From contig CAIVRE010000017.1 in the NCBI GenBank assembly GCA_903908245.1, positions 133 to 64,132 of the forward strand: a DNA stretch of 64,000 bases. The letters are read 5' to 3'. The number at the start of each line of letters is the position of its first letter. The first letter of the stretch is position 1. Shown here piece by piece: positions 5,982-63,935 of this stretch. Source of the DNA: Candidatus Omnitrophota bacterium (GTDB lineage: Bacteria > Omnitrophota > Gorgyraeia > Zapsychrales > Fredricksoniimonadaceae). The position numbers were made by a program, and so were the translations under genes. Under the pieces are notes generated by a model, which was not told the DNA's origin, did no database searches, and worked only from the letters and a program-made list of their open reading frames with translations.

Positions 5982-6620
5982 ATGGTAAAGTTCAATTTTG
6001 ATGACACGAATGCGTATGGCGGTGTAGGAAAGTTCGGCGGGAAAAGTGCGCCTTCTGCACTTCCCAAACTTACGCTTAAGGATCTTAAAGATCTTGCGTT
6101 CAAGTACAAGGTCGAAACCGCTTGCGCGGGTGCTGTTCTTGTAACGATCGTCATCATCTGGCCGTTCTGTGCCATCCAGATGGGAAAGATCAGCGTTCTG
6201 GCCAATGATATTCAGGTGATGACAGATAAAGAAAAACCGATCCAGGATGTCGATAATCTTTCCAAAGAAGCAAAGACCCTGCTTGACGGTGTGCCGGAAT
6301 CTTTACCGGAGAACCGTTTTATTACCCAATTGACATCGCTGGCCAATAAACGTAATGTTACCGTAACAGCCATCTCACCGCCGGCATCCAAAGACAACGG
6401 TTTTTTCGGCCGGATAAGCACTCAGCTTTCATGTTCCGTGAATGGGTTTAAGAATGCGCTGCTTTTTATTAATGACATTGAACAAGCTCCATATGCCTTG
6501 AAAGTGGATTCCTGGAGTGTACGGCCTTCCAGTCTTCCTGATGCCAAAGGGCCGGGGGATGATTCGGTAAAACTTGACATGACGGTTATCGTGTCTTCTA
6601 TTGAGCTATTAGGAAAATGA
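5982..6620 (+). CDS. pilO: type IV pilus assembly protein PilO
   Basis: 212 aa with an N-terminal TM helix, a coiled coil and a C-terminal domain. It lies between the pilMN fusion and pilP. Confidence 0.65.
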   Translation: MVKFNFDDTNAYGGVGKFGGKSAPSALPKLTLKDLKDLAFKYKVETACAGAVLVTIVIIWPFCAIQMGKISVLANDIQVMTDKEKPIQDVDNLSKEAKTLLDGVPESLPENRFITQLTSLANKRNVTVTAISPPASKDNGFFGRISTQLSCSVNGFKNALLFINDIEQAPYALKVDSWSVRPSSLPDAKGPGDDSVKLDMTVIVSSIELLGK

Positions 6621-33246: not shown

Positions 33247-34947
33247 ATGTCTATCCGTTCTAAGAAAAAGATATCTATTCCCATCGCGAAGCCTGTAGTT
33301 GAGAAAAAGAATGAACTCTTGGCTCGACTATCAAGGTGGGGGCTTTTTATTTTATTCGCACTGGGGCTCGCTTTGCGTCTTTATCATCTGAACCGGAATG
33401 TTTTTTATTTCTACGATGAAGGGATGTATTTGAACAGTGGGCGTATTCTTCTTAATCCTCTTATCGGTAATCCGTCGCAGGGTTTGGGGACAATCCTTTC
33501 CAATATCCAGCATTGGTTTTCTTTGGCGACCCAAACCGACAGACCCTTGTGGCAGCTCATGGTTGATTCCCGGATCTTATTGGGTGCAACACAGGAATAT
33601 TGGTGTGTTCGGGGTATATCGTTCGTGATGGGACTTGGGGCTCTGGTCGTGCTTTACCACTTTTCCTGGCGACTTTTCAGCTCCAGATCGACAGCGATTT
33701 TAAGCGTCTTGTTTTTGCTCTTTCTTCCGAGCCACCTCTTTTATTCAAGATCCGGACTCCCGGAAGCCGCCACGACATTTTTCGTTATTTCGGGTTTCTA
33801 TTTTTATTGCTTCCCTCGGTCACTCGGGCCAAGGACATTCCTGGCCGGGCTCTTTTTCACATGTGCTTTCTTTACGAATTATCGCCTGCTTATATTGCCA
33901 ATCTTAACGTTTGCAGGAGAGTTCCTTTTAAGTAAGGCCGAAGAACGCTCTCTTGATCTCAAGAAATGGGGATGGACCGTTGCCATCTTCGGAGTGTTTA
34001 TTCTTCTAGCATGTTTGAACAATCGCGGTGAGTATTTTATTGTAACATCCGGCTGGATGTGGCATCAGGTCGGACTTGCTGTCAACCATTTCGCGTGGGG
34101 CAATATCTTTACTTATCCATATGGCCTCTTCCGTCTGGAAAGCTGGGCATTTGGCCTTCTCTTTTCCGGCGGAATATACTTCGTCTGGAAAAAAGACTGG
34201 CTTAAGGCATTCCCTTTTATCCTTGTTTGTTTCTGGATGACGATGTTCTCTTTTTCTTCGGACAAAGCGCTAAGGTACATGTCAGCCGTACTGCCTTTTA
34301 TGGCCTTAAGCGCTGCTGTCGCTGCGGTGGCAGTGCTTGAATCGGGAACACGCAAGTTCTTTCGTCAAATCGTTATTGTCCTGGTGATCATTGCCATCGG
34401 GACAATGGCGTTTAAATCGTTCCAGCTGGTCATTAATCAATCGCATCATAAGCGGCTGCATCAATATTTAACGAATCTGGACCCGAAAGCGAAGATCGTT
34501 TCAACACAGCCGATGATCCTTGGCCTTGATTACGACGATATTCATCAAATCATCTCTTGCCCTGGAATTAAAGAACCTTCATTCCTGGAATTGCCGGAGA
34601 ACGGATTTAACTATTTGGTACTTGGGCCACAGGCATATGTTTCCTGGACCGCAAGCGGTATCAGCTTTGATGGCGAATTAGGAGGGTTTCTCCGGTTCTT
34701 TGATAAGAAGGTAAGGCCATTAAACGTTTTCCCACATATGAACAAAACAATGCTGGAGCGTTTTGTTTTTGAGCATAATCAAAACTTGATGAGCTCCATT
34801 ACTTTTCTTGAGAAAGCCACTGATCATGCCGGTGAGCGCCGTGTTTATGATATCCAGCAAGGATTGGAACTGCTGGAAAAGGCGACTCATTTAGCCGAAG
34901 AAATGCAAAGCGTGAAAAAAATTAGAACTTCCGCTGCGAACCGGTAG
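33247..34947 (+). CDS. GT-C family glycosyltransferase (GT39/PMT-like) membrane protein
   Basis: 566 aa with about 11 TM helices. A YFYDEGMY loop-1 DE motif follows the first TM helix, and there is a C-terminal soluble domain. Confidence 0.6.
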   Translation: MSIRSKKKISIPIAKPVVEKKNELLARLSRWGLFILFALGLALRLYHLNRNVFYFYDEGMYLNSGRILLNPLIGNPSQGLGTILSNIQHWFSLATQTDRPLWQLMVDSRILLGATQEYWCVRGISFVMGLGALVVLYHFSWRLFSSRSTAILSVLFLLFLPSHLFYSRSGLPEAATTFFVISGFYFYCFPRSLGPRTFLAGLFFTCAFFTNYRLLILPILTFAGEFLLSKAEERSLDLKKWGWTVAIFGVFILLACLNNRGEYFIVTSGWMWHQVGLAVNHFAWGNIFTYPYGLFRLESWAFGLLFSGGIYFVWKKDWLKAFPFILVCFWMTMFSFSSDKALRYMSAVLPFMALSAAVAAVAVLESGTRKFFRQIVIVLVIIAIGTMAFKSFQLVINQSHHKRLHQYLTNLDPKAKIVSTQPMILGLDYDDIHQIISCPGIKEPSFLELPENGFNYLVLGPQAYVSWTASGISFDGELGGFLRFFDKKVRPLNVFPHMNKTMLERFVFEHNQNLMSSITFLEKATDHAGERRVYDIQQGLELLEKATHLAEEMQSVKKIRTSAANR

Positions 34948-48100: not shown

Positions 48101-48127
48101 AAAAACCGCGATTCTTTCCGGTTTTGT
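48101..48127 (+). terminator. possible weak rho-independent terminator after tsaD
   Basis: The hairpin AAAAAACCG-loop-CGGTTTTGTT has a short GC-poor stem and a U-rich tail. Confidence 0.3.
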
Positions 48128-48176
48128 TATAAAATGATAACAAATGTGAAACGATAAGACCCCAAGGAGATCGTCC

Positions 48177-48707
48177 ATGGCTTTTGGTGACAAGAAACCT
48201 CAACGCGCAGAGCCCTCATCCAAAACGATCGAGATCAATGCGGAAATGCACGGGTCTTTATCTTTTAAAGAACAGGTTGACCTGAAGATCAATGGCCATT
48301 TTACCGGCAGCCTTGATGTTCGCGGAACATTGACCGTCGGCGAACGGGCAGAGGTGGAGGCGGATATTCTCGGAGACAATGTGGTCATCGCGGGGAAGGT
48401 CAAAGGCAACGTCGGCGCTGCCAAAATGCTCACGCTTTTGCCGACGGCTGTCCTGATCGGGAATATCAACGCGCCAAAATTAAATATTGTCGAAGGTGCG
48501 ATCTTCCAGGGGAACTGCCAGATGTCCCCGGCGGAAACAAATGAATGGATGAATATCAAGGAGCTTACGGCCTATCTTGAGCTCGATGAAGGGACAATCA
48601 TAGAACTTGTGCGTTCAGGCAAGATCCCGGTAGTCCGCGATGGCGATGTCCTTAAATTCGAACGTTCACAGATCGACAGTTGGGCCTCGGCGGGGATGGT
48701 GAGATGA
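48177..48707 (+). CDS. bactofilin domain protein fused to C-terminal helix-turn-helix (excisionase/MerR-type HTH_17-like) domain
   Basis: 176 aa. Residues ~30-120 form a bactofilin beta-helix with repeated G.V.G.V motifs (LDVRGTLTVGERAEVEADILGDNVVIAGKVKGNVGAAKMLTLLPTAVLIGNINAPKLNIVEGAIFQGN). Residues ~125-170 are IKELTAYLELDEGTIIELVRSGKIPVVRDGDVLKFERSQID. Confidence 0.7.
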   Translation: MAFGDKKPQRAEPSSKTIEINAEMHGSLSFKEQVDLKINGHFTGSLDVRGTLTVGERAEVEADILGDNVVIAGKVKGNVGAAKMLTLLPTAVLIGNINAPKLNIVEGAIFQGNCQMSPAETNEWMNIKELTAYLELDEGTIIELVRSGKIPVVRDGDVLKFERSQIDSWASAGMVR

Positions 48708-49009
48708 GCACAAGCCCTTACGTGACCGTCCGCGAGGCGGCGCATATCCTTGGGATCGCCGAGGGGAAAGTAATGGTCCTGATCGATGAAAAGAAGCTGA
48801 TGGCCTATCGTATCGCCGATCAGTACCTCCGGCTCAAGCGCAGTGACATCCTTTCCATCCGTGATTCCGGCAATGTTGCCTCGGAAACGATCAAATTCCC
48901 CTATACCGCCCAGGAAAAATTAATGGACCTCGTCAGGTATAATGATTTTTATATTCTTTCTTTCCTGGTCATTATGGTGCTGCTTTTCCTTGTATTCTTC
49001 GTGCGGTAG
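48704..49009 (+). CDS. HTH_17-like DNA-binding protein with C-terminal transmembrane anchor
   Basis: 101 aa from the ATG at 48704, which overlaps the bactofilin stop (ATGA). The N-terminal HTH (VTVREAAHILGIAEGKVMVLIDEKKLMAYRIADQYLRLKRSDI) is paralogous to the preceding gene's HTH. The C-terminus is FYILSFLVIMVLLFLVFFV. Confidence 0.6.
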   Translation: MSTSPYVTVREAAHILGIAEGKVMVLIDEKKLMAYRIADQYLRLKRSDILSIRDSGNVASETIKFPYTAQEKLMDLVRYNDFYILSFLVIMVLLFLVFFVR

Positions 49010-49079: not shown

Positions 49080-49093
49080 TGTGCCCATATTTT

Positions 49094-49167
49094 GCCGGGG
49101 TAGCTCAGTTGGCTAGAGCATGCGGTTCATACCCGCCAGGTCGAGTGTTCGAATCACTCCTCCGGCA
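49094..49167 (+). tRNA. tRNA with CAT anticodon (elongator Met or lysidine-modified Ile2)
   Basis: 74 nt cloverleaf. The acceptor stem GCCGGGG/CTCCGGC has one G-U pair. The anticodon stem TGCGG/CCGCA carries the loop TTCATAC, giving anticodon CAT. T-arm GTCGAGTGTTCGAATCACTC, discriminator A, no encoded CCA. G1-C72 is paired and there is no 3xG-C anticodon stem, so it is not an initiator. T-rich sequence follows. Confidence 0.85.
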
Positions 49168-49297
49168 TTTTTTTGATTTTTGAAGAACATAAAATCACCT
49201 GCCCGTACCACGACTTCTTCTTATTCTTCTCATTAACAAGATGAAGGGATATCTTCCTTTCAGGAAGATGTTTCTCGTTTTCAGGGGTACATTTTCC

Positions 49298-50909: not shown

Positions 50910-52127
50910 ATGAGAATATTTAATACTTTATATGCGATCGTTCTTTTCTGCCTGGTCATCCCTGTATTGGCGTTCGCACAGGCGCCATCCGACGGCATGA
51001 CCAAGGAGTTTTTTGATGATGGACGCGTGCGCTTTGAAAAGACTTATTCCGCCGGAGAGCTGAACGGCCCTTTTCGTGAATATTATCCTGACGGGAAACT
51101 TCTCAGTGTCGGAAATTACAAAGCCGGGCGCCTTGACGGCGGGTTCAAGTCTTACTATCAGAACGGAAACCTGTTCATTGAAAAAACCTATGTTAACGGT
51201 TCACAACACGGAATCAACAAGGAATACTTCGAGAATGGCAACATAAAGAGTGTCGAAGGGTATAAATACGATACGTTCGACGGGCCCTGCAAATATTATG
51301 CCGAAGACGGGACCCTTAAATATTCCCTGGAATTCCTCGCGGGCCAGCTTAACGGCGAGAGCCGGGAATACAATGAACTCGGGGTCCTGACCAGTATTGT
51401 GTTCTACCGTGACAATGTGCTTAACGGCGAAGCACAGGAGTTCAACGACCAGGGGACCCTGCATGCCCGATGGAATTACCGCAACGGCCTCAAAGAAGGT
51501 GAATCACGGATCTTTTATGATAATGGGAAAGAAGAATGGATCCTGAATTTCAAGGAAGGCGAGATCAATGGCCCGGGGAAGAAATTCTCCCGCAATGGCG
51601 TTCTGATACTCAATGCTGAATATAAAAACAACCAGTATAACGGCCTGGTCCGGGAATTTGCCGATAATGCCAAGCCCAGATCAGAATGTTCGTATAAAGA
51701 CGGGGTCAAAGACGGCGTCTGCCGTGAATATCATCCCAACGGCGCCCTTAAGATCGAATGGAGCTATGAAGCCGGTGAAAAGCAGGGATTAGCCAAAGAA
51801 TACACGGCGTCAGGCGTATTGTGGATGGAGGTTTCCTACGATAAAGGCAAACAAAATGGTATCATGAAAGAGTTTTATCCCAACGGCAAGGTCAAGAAAC
51901 AATGGGAGATCGTCAATGGCCTTCAGCAGGGAAGCAGTAAAGCATTTTACGAAACCGGTGAATTAATGAGTGAAGAGTTTTATCAGGACGGGAAGCTTCA
52001 GGGAGAATCCCGTTTGTTCAACAGGGATAACAATCTCGCTTATATCGACACTTTTGACCGGGGCGTCAAGATCAAACGTAAAGGTTTTGATGCCCGGGGA
52101 AAAATGGAGTTTGAGCAAAATTATTAA
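50910..52127 (+). CDS. secreted MORN-repeat-variant (YwqK-like) repeat protein
   Basis: 405 aa with a signal peptide. It contains about 14 tandem repeats of ~23 aa with the pattern G.....YY.NG.L...G.Y..G...G. Confidence 0.7.
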   Translation: MRIFNTLYAIVLFCLVIPVLAFAQAPSDGMTKEFFDDGRVRFEKTYSAGELNGPFREYYPDGKLLSVGNYKAGRLDGGFKSYYQNGNLFIEKTYVNGSQHGINKEYFENGNIKSVEGYKYDTFDGPCKYYAEDGTLKYSLEFLAGQLNGESREYNELGVLTSIVFYRDNVLNGEAQEFNDQGTLHARWNYRNGLKEGESRIFYDNGKEEWILNFKEGEINGPGKKFSRNGVLILNAEYKNNQYNGLVREFADNAKPRSECSYKDGVKDGVCREYHPNGALKIEWSYEAGEKQGLAKEYTASGVLWMEVSYDKGKQNGIMKEFYPNGKVKKQWEIVNGLQQGSSKAFYETGELMSEEFYQDGKLQGESRLFNRDNNLAYIDTFDRGVKIKRKGFDARGKMEFEQNY

Positions 52128-56909: not shown

Positions 56910-57741
56910 ACGGGCGCACAAGAATGAGTTCGGCCACCTGTTGGTCGTGGCGGGGTCTCCTTCCATGCTGGGCGCAGCCTGCCTGGTCGCTTTGGCAGCC
57001 ATGCGTTCCGGTGCCGGACTAGTTACCGGGGCTATCCCAAAAGCATTGAATAACACTCTTCAGCGAAAGATCGCTCACGCGATCATGACTTTACCGGTGA
57101 CAGGCGCTGCCGGAGAAGTCTTCGGCAAGAAAGACATCGGAGTTCTTAAAAAATGCTGGCATAAATATACCGCAGTCGCTGTCGGCCCAGGGCTTGGCTT
57201 AAAACCGGCGACAATACAATTCGTCCGAACGATCATTGAGCAATGCCCATTGCCAATGGTGATCGATGCCGATGCCATCAATGCTTTGTCGGGCGGCCTG
57301 AAACCGCTAAAGAAAAGTCCAGGCCCACGGGTCCTTACGCCTCATCCCGGCGAGTTCTTTCGTCTGACCGGCTTAAAACCGGAGACGGACCGTGAACGCC
57401 GCCTGGCGGCAAGATCTTTTGCCATTAAACATAACGTTGTCCTTGTCCTGAAAGGGCGCCATAGCATTGTTGCTTCTGCCGACGGACGAGTCTATCTGAA
57501 CAAAACAGGCAATGCCGGAATGGCCAAGGCGGGGATGGGGGATGTGCTGACCGGGATGATCGGCGCATTATTAGCGCAAGGAGTTCCGGCTTTTGAAGCC
57601 GCACGGGCAGCTGTGCACTGGCATGGCGCTGCCGGGGACCTTTGTTTAAAGAATAAACATATTTTTTCTTTAACTGCGCCGGATCTTATAGAGATCCTGG
57701 CCAGTAAAAAACTGACGAGTATCTTGCATGCCGAATTCTGA
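56875..57741 (+). CDS. NAD(P)H-hydrate dehydratase (YjeF C-terminal / Nnr2 family)
   Basis: 288 aa with GHLLVVAGS...GAA.LA..AA.RSGAG and GDVLTGMIGALLAQG. The start is uncertain because it overlaps acpS by 35 nt. Confidence 0.75.
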   Translation: MRLPTPLLRRNKRAHKNEFGHLLVVAGSPSMLGAACLVALAAMRSGAGLVTGAIPKALNNTLQRKIAHAIMTLPVTGAAGEVFGKKDIGVLKKCWHKYTAVAVGPGLGLKPATIQFVRTIIEQCPLPMVIDADAINALSGGLKPLKKSPGPRVLTPHPGEFFRLTGLKPETDRERRLAARSFAIKHNVVLVLKGRHSIVASADGRVYLNKTGNAGMAKAGMGDVLTGMIGALLAQGVPAFEAARAAVHWHGAAGDLCLKNKHIFSLTAPDLIEILASKKLTSILHAEF

Positions 57742-58150
57742 GGCGATGCCCTTACATGATCGTATCATTTTGTCTCTTATCGGCTGTTTGATCCTGATCA
57801 ATTTTACTTATATCTTTCGTATCCTGCCTGCGGATCATAATTCCGCAGTACCGGGAGGATGGGCGGCGCCGCTCAAGCCATTCCTGAAAAACGTAAATGT
57901 CGCGACATATTATACCGACCGCTACAGCCTGGATCATCCCAATGACCCCGAATCCAACTATTTTTTCCAACAGACGCAATATACCCTTTCTCCGGTCATG
58001 TTGTTTATGGATAATGACCTTACACGTGAGATCATCGTTTTTGATTGTAAAGAACCGGGGTGTTATAAAGACCTCTTGTCAAGGTCCGGCCATAAGCCGC
58101 AAATAATATTCAACGATCATATCGGCGTGTTAAGAAAACCGGGGTATTAA
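57728..58150 (+). CDS. hypothetical membrane protein
   Basis: 140 aa with one TM helix (IILSLIGCLILINFTYIF) and no recognisable motif. Confidence 0.45.
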   Translation: MPNSEAMPLHDRIILSLIGCLILINFTYIFRILPADHNSAVPGGWAAPLKPFLKNVNVATYYTDRYSLDHPNDPESNYFFQQTQYTLSPVMLFMDNDLTREIIVFDCKEPGCYKDLLSRSGHKPQIIFNDHIGVLRKPGY

Positions 58151-63862: not shown

Positions 63863-63935
63863 GCCGATGTAGCTCAGTTGGTAGAGCAGCGGTTTTGTAA
63901 ACCGCGGGTCGGGGGTTCAATTCCTCTCGTCGGCT
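63863..63935 (+). tRNA. tRNA-Thr (anticodon TGT)
   Basis: 73 nt. The acceptor stem GCCGATG/CGTCGGC has one G-U pair. D-arm AGCTCAGTTGGTAGAGC. The anticodon stem GCGGT/ACCGC carries the loop TTTGTAA, giving anticodon TGT. T-loop TTCAATT. No encoded CCA. Confidence 0.85.

Follow-up and report, generated by a model that had tools for sequence, protein, structure and literature searches.

Does a bactofilin gene from an uncultured bacterium encode a scaffold with a link to DNA of its own? Bactofilins are scaffolds of wide distribution, and every connection to DNA known for them runs through a separate adaptor protein. The question is raised by two overlapping genes in a 64,000-nt stretch of a Candidatus Omnitrophota genome (GenBank assembly GCA_903908245.1, contig CAIVRE010000017.1), hereafter called the window, in whose positions all open reading frame (ORF) coordinates are given. 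Both genes lie on the + strand. ORF1 (48177..48707) encodes a 176 aa fusion of a bactofilin with a winged helix-turn-helix (wHTH) domain, as judged from the ORF call, Pfam, AlphaFold2 (AF2) and Foldseek, and ORF2 (48704..49009; ORF call and Pfam) encodes a 101 aa tail-anchored protein with a helix-turn-helix (HTH) domain of the HTH_17 family. A first-pass annotation had suggested that the pair could form a bridge between filament, DNA and membrane. The domains, the coupling of the genes and the transmembrane (TM) tail of that proposal held up in our analysis; the polymer as DNA binder and ORF2 as the needed membrane tether lost ground. The genes form a conserved, uncharacterised pair found in Omnitrophota, an uncultured phylum, and their products may link DNA or other partners to a scaffold at the membrane.

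We examined the bactofilin part of ORF1, using alignments of 82 homologue pairs for conservation. ORF1 matched the Pfam Bactofilin family (PF04519) over aa 18-115 with E 2.1e-23 and 82.8 bits (cut-off 27.9), the alignment covering positions 3-98 of the 98 in the profile. The AF2 model, calculated from a 102-sequence alignment, had a predicted local distance difference test (pLDDT) value of 84 overall, and aa 16-116 (48222..48524) were predicted as beta-helix strands with pLDDT >90. In the PDB, Foldseek matched this beta-helix to both bactofilins with solved structures, to BacA of Caulobacter crescentus (2n3d; TMt 0.82, rmsd 2.2) and to TtBac of Thermus thermophilus (6ria/6rib; TMt 0.76-0.77). 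Phe110, located at the C-terminal polymerisation face, aligned with F130 of BacA and F105 of TtBac and was invariant in 82/82 homologues; the substitutions F130R in BacA and F105R in TtBac abolish polymerisation (PMC12448750). Its hidden Markov model (HMM) match, its predicted fold and the residue at the polymerisation interface place ORF1 among the bactofilins.

The N-terminus of ORF1, MAFGDKKPQR (aa 1-10; 48177..48206, + strand), resembles the membrane-targeting sequence (MTS) of bactofilins. It belongs to a family motif, M-A-[FL]-[GR]-[DE]-[KR]-[KR]-x-x-[KR], which is found in exact register in 48/82 homologues. The MTS of BacA is MFSKQAKS and the global consensus is MFSKKKK (PMC12448750). 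The ORF1 peptide has the hydrophobic start and the paired basic residues of the consensus, together with one extra residue and one acidic position. These features suggest that the polymer probably reaches the membrane without ORF2; since ORF1 has an MTS-like N-terminus of its own, ORF2 would not be needed for membrane access. ORF1 has the beta-helix and the polymerisation Phe in common with BacA and TtBac and resembles canonical bactofilins in its MTS-like N-terminus; canonical bactofilins, too, have a membrane-protein partner, such as the client PbpC (PMC12448750). Canonical bactofilins, however, end in a short disordered tail, whereas ORF1 has a folded wHTH in its place and almost no linker.

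This second domain of ORF1 (aa 124-172; 48546..48692, + strand) was identified as an acidic, excisionase/MerR-like winged HTH by Pfam, TIGR01764, AF2 and Foldseek. It matched HTH_17 (PF12728; E 1.1e-7, 32.5 bits against a cut-off of 27) and the NCBIfam 'excisionase family' model TIGR01764 (30.9 against a cut-off of 28.8). The initial description of a bactofilin joined to a C-terminal excisionase/MerR-type HTH was therefore correct, both Pfam domains scoring above their cut-offs. AF2 modelled aa 124-171 as a beta-alpha-alpha-beta-beta-alpha winged helix, with a bridge at 124-125, helices at 127-134, 138-147 and 163-171, and strands at 153-155 and 158-162. The Foldseek matches of this domain included RdfS (8dgl), Pukovnik Xis (4j2n), BldC (6ama) and RacA (5i44) at TMt 0.6-0.78, with values of 0.70-0.78 for RdfS, Xis and BldC. 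Its structural neighbours are nearly all DNA binders, several of which multimerise on DNA; CbpM, a protein of MerR-like fold that binds a J-domain, was also among them. Against solved excisionases, the ORF1 HTH profile reached E 0.2-0.75 at best. The stretch between the last beta-helix motif (C-x-M) and the YLEI of HTH helix 1 is only 12 residues long in 55/80 members, and the free linker amounts to about 2-3 residues in most. Because the linker is so short, the fused HTH is predicted to sit directly at the C-terminal polymerisation face.

Could this polymer bind DNA by itself, as had been proposed? As stated, that claim did not withstand a closer look at the domain. The net charge of the fused HTH was negative in every homologue examined (mean about -4.3 to -4.6; range -8 to -2). 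Its recognition helix (alpha2) begins D-E-x-x-I, with x variable, whereas the canonical Xis pattern is S/T-x-K-x-V. The sites of DNA contact in relatives, namely the N-terminus of alpha1 and the start of alpha2, hold conserved acidic residues here, and the conserved residues are those of the structural core (YLE, GKIP, FER, ID and WA). K15 and R19 of the equivalent helix make the base contacts in RacA (PMC4914108), and the ORF1 HTH has no equivalents of either. Some basic wing residues are kept (K149, R153, K159 and R163). These residues are one argument for a model in which both HTHs bind DNA, the bactofilin filament coating or bridging DNA and ORF2 adding a membrane-fixed contact. Such a model would also be in line with the placement of both domains in HTH_17 and with the relatives BldC, RdfS and RacA, which coat DNA as multimers (PMC4914108), and polymer avidity could offset weak binding by a single domain. 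Nevertheless, the net negative charge of each fused HTH, the acidic residues at the contact sites and an MTS-like peptide that makes an ORF2 tether unneeded all speak against it, and we regard it as very doubtful.

ORF2 presents a different picture. Its HTH_17 domain (aa 6-50; 48719..48853, + strand) scored 28.5 bits in Pfam, marginally above the cut-off of 27. PF12728 was listed in the precomputed Pfam annotation of all of the best 120 ORF2 relatives, the ORF2 family profile matched Pukovnik Xis (4j2n) at E 3e-4, and a divergent orthologue at locus L083 reached 39.3 bits on TIGR01764. Although the single-sequence score is marginal, the family-level evidence supports assigning ORF2 to HTH_17. 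MamR (NF040990) was considered as an identity for ORF2 and rejected at 13.5 bits against a cut-off of 100 (E 0.07). The ORF2 HTH has a net charge of about +2 and is highly conserved throughout. Its alpha2 starts with S-E-K-K-V, compared with S-T-K-T-V in Pukovnik Xis, and thereby keeps an equivalent of the RacA Lys only. Conserved basic residues are found at the N-terminus of helix 1 (R10), at K21/K22, in the wing (R36) and before helix 3 (R43 and K45); R10, R36, R43 and K45 were invariant or nearly so in the homologue alignment. The elements that hold these residues are those that touch DNA in RacA (PMC4914108). Because its HTH is basic, strongly conserved and Xis-like, ORF2 appears to be a better candidate for DNA binding than the fused HTH.

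The remainder of ORF2 is equally distinctive. A juxtamembrane aromatic and acidic helix (aa 66-80; 48899..48943, + strand) was recognised from conservation and from the AF2 model, in which aa 69-79 are helical. Its motif, Y-T-x-x-E-R-x-x-D-F-F-Y-F-N-D-F-Y, is near-invariant in 82 sequences, as are Y67, E71, D75, N80, D81, F82 and Y83, and this helix could serve as a docking site for the bactofilin. It is followed by the C-terminal TM tail anchor (aa 81-99; 48944..49000, + strand), a hydrophobic segment modelled as a helix with pLDDT of about 90. The TM helix noted at the outset was present as a TM-like segment in 82/82 ORF2 homologues, and ORF2 ends two residues past it.

The two HTHs had been called clearly paralogous, which proved too strong. 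BLASTP found 21% identity between them at E 0.06, and ORF2 was not matched when the ORF1 family HMM was run over the window. Only hhalign linked them (probability 94%, E 1e-7, 26% identity). The two domains are thus homologous by profile-profile comparison, the only approach in which the relationship was visible, yet they share just 21-26% of their residues.

We analyzed the distribution of the fusion and of the pair. The ORF1 search returned 637 protein clusters. The best 120 of these were 168-190 aa long except for one fragment, had 55-100% identity with the full query covered, and carried both Pfam domains in nearly all cases; those with names were almost exclusively labelled Candidatus Omnitrophica/Omnitrophota. 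A pattern scan of one genome per species found the fusion in at least 139 species-level genomes, a lower bound, with labels almost all Omnitrophota. Among 1.84 billion representatives at 50% identity, 23,385 matched the profile at E up to 1e-3 and 33 at E up to 1e-30, about 20 of the latter being full-length fusions. Since some 20 full-length fusions stand against 23,385 profile matches, the bactofilin-HTH architecture is rare among bactofilins and fixed in this lineage. Three of the close matches that consist of a bactofilin only (P0183, P0187 and P0195) were truncated or chimeric contig ends, and two (P0199 and P0201) were genuine bactofilin-only relatives. Records with 55-81% identity labelled Planctomycetales, Elusimicrobia or Elulimicrobium were also found; nearly all showed the same synteny (L005, L007 and many CAY*/CAZ* records), and their labels probably reflect labelling differences. 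Two metagenome-assembled genomes contained two copies of the pair each, nDJH2bin18 (L004 and L023) and ERP125453_co1_189 (L018 and L072). The nDJH2bin18 copies have 87% and 57% identity to the window protein; as they share the same synteny, we rejected paralogues within this genome in favour of mixed bins, which are more likely.

The pair itself was conserved without exception. We compared 81 loci, 80 fetched from the species-level scan together with L001, and an ORF2 homologue stood immediately 3' of the ORF1 homologue in 81/81, which answers the earlier question of whether the genes co-occur. In the window, the ATG of ORF2 at 48704 overlaps the ORF1 stop codon in an ATGA, as had been noted, and the same start was chosen in public gene calls. 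Stop and start codons overlapped in 43/81 pairs, of which 36 shared 4 nt and 7 shared 1 nt; in the remaining pairs, the gap was no longer than 120 nt. From the ORF2 side, the ORF2 profile returned 1429 clusters, the best 120 all about 100 aa long, and both of two relatives checked (2/2) lay behind a bactofilin-HTH gene. The pair being co-conserved and translationally coupled, we infer that the two proteins probably act together, as a complex at the membrane.

The surroundings were also stable. Across the loci the order was gatB-ctpA-(divergent polysaccharide deacetylase)-tsaD-ORF1-ORF2-tRNA-Met-SNase-tilS-(MORN protein)-ftsH, with tsaD upstream of the pair in 76/81. A divergent copy of the whole pair at L083:3912-6464 (GCA_964565945.1, CAZMGY010000013.1), consists of a 178 aa fusion and an HTH_17 protein of 97 aa that has a TM segment at its C-terminus; upstream of it, genes for a SPOR-domain and a TPR-PDZ protein take the place of tsaD. 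Because it is kept there in a different neighbourhood, the pair moves as a unit, and it again adjoins envelope or division genes.

These data bear on the least exciting explanations, an assembly or split-gene artefact and a mobile-element excisionase or defence gene. The JGI annotation 'excisionase family DNA binding protein' and a domain-level similarity to Mad1 of the MADS system would point towards a mobile element or a defence function. However, the fusion occurs in 637 clusters and at least 139 species genomes, with hundreds of independent full-length homologues of identical architecture, which is incompatible with a frameshift or a split gene; the housekeeping synteny is fixed across the phylum, and no integrase was found near the pair in the fetched loci. 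Mad1 itself (NF047737 / PADLOC mad1) was rejected, as it scored 43.4 bits against a cut-off of 80, PADLOC gave a 26-bit domain hit only, and the locus is a housekeeping one. Conservation and synteny rule these readings out, and we consider the chance that any of them is right vanishingly small.

What, then, might the two proteins do together? We propose that a membrane-bound bactofilin scaffold clusters tail-anchored ORF2 and, through ORF2, tethers DNA, the pair forming a two-protein anchor for the nucleoid or for a particular locus. We favour this proposal over the alternatives without holding it to be probable. ORF1 would bind the inner face of the cytoplasmic membrane via its N-terminal MTS-like peptide and polymerise end to end through the bactofilin beta-helix, each subunit bearing an acidic excisionase/MerR-like wHTH a few residues from the C-terminal end of the helix. 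ORF2 would be made in a fixed ratio from the overlapping frame, would be inserted into the membrane by its C-terminal tail anchor, and would hold its basic, canonical wHTH about 25-30 residues from the membrane. The polymer would cluster ORF2 either through its juxtamembrane helix or through HTH-HTH contacts as in BldC, RdfS and RacA, the acidic fused HTH being joined to the basic HTH of ORF2 in the manner of the multimer contacts of these proteins. The resulting array would bind DNA mainly via the ORF2 wHTH, and the nucleoid or a specific locus would be tethered to the membrane.

Several observations weigh against this proposal. The fused HTH lies almost on the C-terminal polymerisation face and could interfere with polymerisation. 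It is acidic and lacks the canonical recognition residues, which suggests that the polymer itself may not bind DNA. The HTH_17 score of ORF2 is close to its cut-off, and on TIGR01764 ORF2 scored 26.8, below the cut-off of 28.8. AF2, given 44 sequences, modelled ORF2 with a long helix at aa 20-54 and no wing (pLDDT 59-73), and Foldseek matched the HTH part of this model to generic HTH cores only, at E >1. A k-mer search of the homologous loci revealed no conserved operator, binding motif or repeat near the operon; the k-mers common to the loci were those of the extended -10, the ribosome-binding site and the downstream tRNA-Met only. Finally, the neighbours are housekeeping and envelope genes (ctpA, deacetylase and tsaD; SPOR and PDZ genes in L083), not partition or replication genes.

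Known systems provide partial precedents for tethering DNA in this way. In Myxococcus xanthus, a bactofilin organises chromosome segregation proteins, and in this BacNOP-PadC-ParA/ParB system a nucleotide-independent bactofilin scaffold is tied to DNA organisation (PMC5703909). Its bactofilins lack a DNA-binding-type domain, and DNA binding and adaptor function fall to two further proteins, ParB and PadC. Here, by contrast, every subunit carries a wHTH, and the operon also encodes a tail-anchored partner with a wHTH. Neither a ParB-like nor a ParA-like gene adjoins the pair in the locus neighbourhoods. The second precedent is RacA-DivIVA of Bacillus subtilis. The MerR/excisionase-like wHTH of RacA (5i44) is among the structural neighbours of the ORF1 C-domain. 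In RacA, it is linked to a module for self-association and to a membrane-associated scaffold; the protein tethers DNA to the membrane and multimerises on DNA (PMC4914108). RacA has a coiled coil and binds to DivIVA; the system includes neither a bactofilin nor a TM anchor, and the resemblance to the ORF1 C-domain is confined to the fold (Foldseek E 0.4). Pukovnik Xis (4j2n), Tn916 Xis (1y6u), RdfS (8dgl) and BldC (6ama) share domain family and fold with both HTHs, and several of them form head-to-tail multimers or filaments on DNA. They are, however, free-standing, basic proteins of mobile elements or developmental regulators, whereas the HTHs described here are fused to a polymer or to a tail anchor, lie in a housekeeping locus, and include one that is acidic. 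A stronger version of the tethering proposal would make the pair a self-contained, nucleotide-independent chromosome-to-membrane anchor, in which a bactofilin polymer with a built-in wHTH works with the tail-anchored wHTH partner, the lattice spaces the modules, and paired HTHs form at tail-to-tail junctions. We consider this version unlikely.

The same charge asymmetry and the same neighbours can be read without DNA. In this alternative, the main rival of the tethering proposal, the HTH_17 domains are protein-protein modules and the pair is a RodZ-like adaptor, ORF2 docking on the bactofilin as a membrane client or anchor and envelope, shape or division enzymes being scaffolded, which is the role of most characterised bactofilins. 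An acidic fused HTH opposite a basic partner HTH would suit such docking, as would the variable recognition-helix positions of the fused HTH and the presence of CbpM among its structural neighbours. The genes nearby point the same way: the main family has ctpA and a polysaccharide deacetylase gene as neighbours, and L083 has genes for SPOR and TPR-PDZ proteins. BacA recruits a membrane client via its cytoplasmic tail (PMC12448750), and the HTH of RodZ binds MreB rather than DNA (PMC13584716). RodZ-MreB is thus a precedent for ORF2 as a cytoskeleton adaptor, although RodZ and ORF2 differ in the type of HTH (XRE in RodZ, HTH_17 in ORF2), in the periplasmic domain, which ORF2 lacks, and in the partner, which is actin-like for RodZ and a bactofilin for ORF2. 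On the other hand, ORF2 retains the canonical basic positions of its DNA-binding relatives and matches excisionase by sequence, and the pair has a promoter-like element of its own, co-transcription with the envelope genes not being obvious. The charges of the two HTHs did not co-vary in a compensating manner across the 82 pairs (Spearman +0.23), a value that is confounded by phylogeny and uninformative. We regard the adaptor explanation as possible, but we lean against it.

The sequence upstream of ORF1 bears on a further alternative. A Shine-Dalgarno motif, AAGGAG (48164..48169, + strand), lies 7 nt 5' of the ORF1 ATG and was the most frequent 6-mer upstream of ORF1 homologues (36 loci). Further upstream lies a promoter-like extended -10, TGTTATAAA (48125..48133, + strand), identified by its match to the consensus only. 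Within 120 bp 5' of ORF1 homologues, TGTTATAA was the 8-mer shared most widely (17 loci). Where the tsaD-ORF1 gap is short, TGTTAT was present in 20/43 loci, and TTGAC often preceded it by 17-18 bp. A generic promoter scan of the window did not call the extended -10 of ORF1, which is without a -35 match. In the window, an inverted repeat, TGTTAT-AAAATG-ATAACA (48125-48142), overlaps this extended -10. Among the other 42 comparable loci, the TGTTAT-N6-ATAACA repeat was found only in degenerate one-mismatch forms, in 3 loci; the repeat in the window is therefore probably due to chance and not an operator.

An operator at this position would have suited a regulatory switch, either BacR-like or in the form of a membrane-bound transcription factor, in which ORF2, the fused HTH or both act as a transcription factor that the membrane-bound polymer sequesters from DNA, so that gene expression would follow the condition of scaffold or envelope. 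Membrane-anchored one-component regulators such as ToxR and CadC are known, and the recognition helix of ORF2 is strongly conserved, as expected for a conserved target. The closest parallel is BacR (YhbD, DUF4004) of B. subtilis, an HTH protein encoded with bactofilins that binds them, is recruited to and held at the membrane by BacE/BacF, and then loses DNA binding (PMC13649987). BacR, however, belongs to another family and is soluble (about 29 kDa); it shuttles between membrane and nucleoid and regulates its operon, whereas here one HTH is covalently fused and the other permanently tail-anchored. Neither ORF1 nor ORF2 matched DUF4004 (PF13171) at E up to 1, so the likeness to BacR is functional only. 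A permanent tail anchor with no sensor domain, the lack of a conserved operator at the pair's own promoter, where the inverted repeat is degenerate in 3/42 other loci, and a repressor on every polymer subunit, an unusual stoichiometry for a regulator, make a switch quite unlikely, more so than the adaptor explanation.

More distant relatives of the fusion were found in other contexts. At L082:1-6850 (JGI 3300009777, Ga0105164_10002154), a divergent bactofilin-HTH_17 fusion, P0329 (188 aa; 6001-6567), ends a gene cluster that encodes a MamF/MmsF-like membrane protein, an XRE HTH, an actin-like protein (Pfam Volactin, with a weak MamK-like match of 21 bits), a ParA-like ATPase with a C-terminal AMPK1_CBM, and three uncharacterised proteins; the gene after P0329 encodes a membrane protein without an HTH. 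This cluster may serve to position an organelle or cargo. Divergent bactofilin-HTH_17 fusions at L085:6001-6558 and L087:2564-3118 have no HTH partner, the downstream gene encoding a protein with an N-terminal TM segment and a coiled coil in L085 and a small multi-TM protein in L087. Two other proteins, P0202 (231 aa) and P0221 (479 aa), consist of 3 and 7-8 tandem HTH_17 repeats, respectively, and nothing else. Their repeats carry the GKIP...W.F....ID.W signature of the fused HTH, but are basic.

Within the window, the pair lies among housekeeping genes (secDF, mfd, pdxA, ksgA, gatA, folP, cdaA, pdxJ, acpS and recN), and no second bactofilin or related HTH was found elsewhere in the 64 kb. 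An unusually long co-directional array extends over window positions 1-64000, with 52/57 non-overlapping ORFs of at least 110 aa on the + strand. Two ORFs within this array, at 33247-34947 (566 aa) and 57728-58150 (140 aa), had no Pfam match at E up to 1e-4. The RNA genes found in the window were two tRNAs only, at 49093-49168 (Met) and 63863-63935. Between tilS and ftsH, window positions 50910-52127 encode a 405 aa MORN_2-repeat protein with a signal-like N-terminus, which is kept at this site in only 14/81 loci. The window locus has no MgtC-family gene between tsaD and ORF1. Elsewhere, the tsaD-ORF1 gap measures 440-690 bp in 36/76 loci (for example, L018, L021 and L088:1914-2393), and in about 30/36 of these it is filled by a gene for an MgtC/SapB-family membrane protein of about 150 aa that runs straight into the bactofilin-HTH gene.

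A protein identical to ORF1 is present on a public contig of 327,727 bp, and public annotations of the family are generic, either 'polymer-forming cytoskeletal protein' or 'excisionase family DNA binding protein'. In line with the first-pass annotation, which knew of no characterised bactofilin-HTH fusion, our full-text literature searches found no description of such a fusion, nor of this pair in Omnitrophota, among the papers listed. Its novelty lies in a DNA-binding-type domain that replaces the disordered tail on each bactofilin subunit and in a membrane-anchored relative encoded alongside it, a pair kept across a whole phylum of essentially unknown cell biology. If the self-contained anchor were real, it would be the first cytoskeletal filament whose subunits bear their own DNA-binding-type domain. 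If the module ties DNA to the membrane, it would be a minimal nucleoid-anchoring device that two proteins, of 176 and 101 aa, could be enough to reconstitute; otherwise, it would be a clear case of HTH_17 recruited for cytoskeleton-membrane coupling, as in RodZ. Either outcome would annotate more than 1400 protein clusters that now carry generic names.

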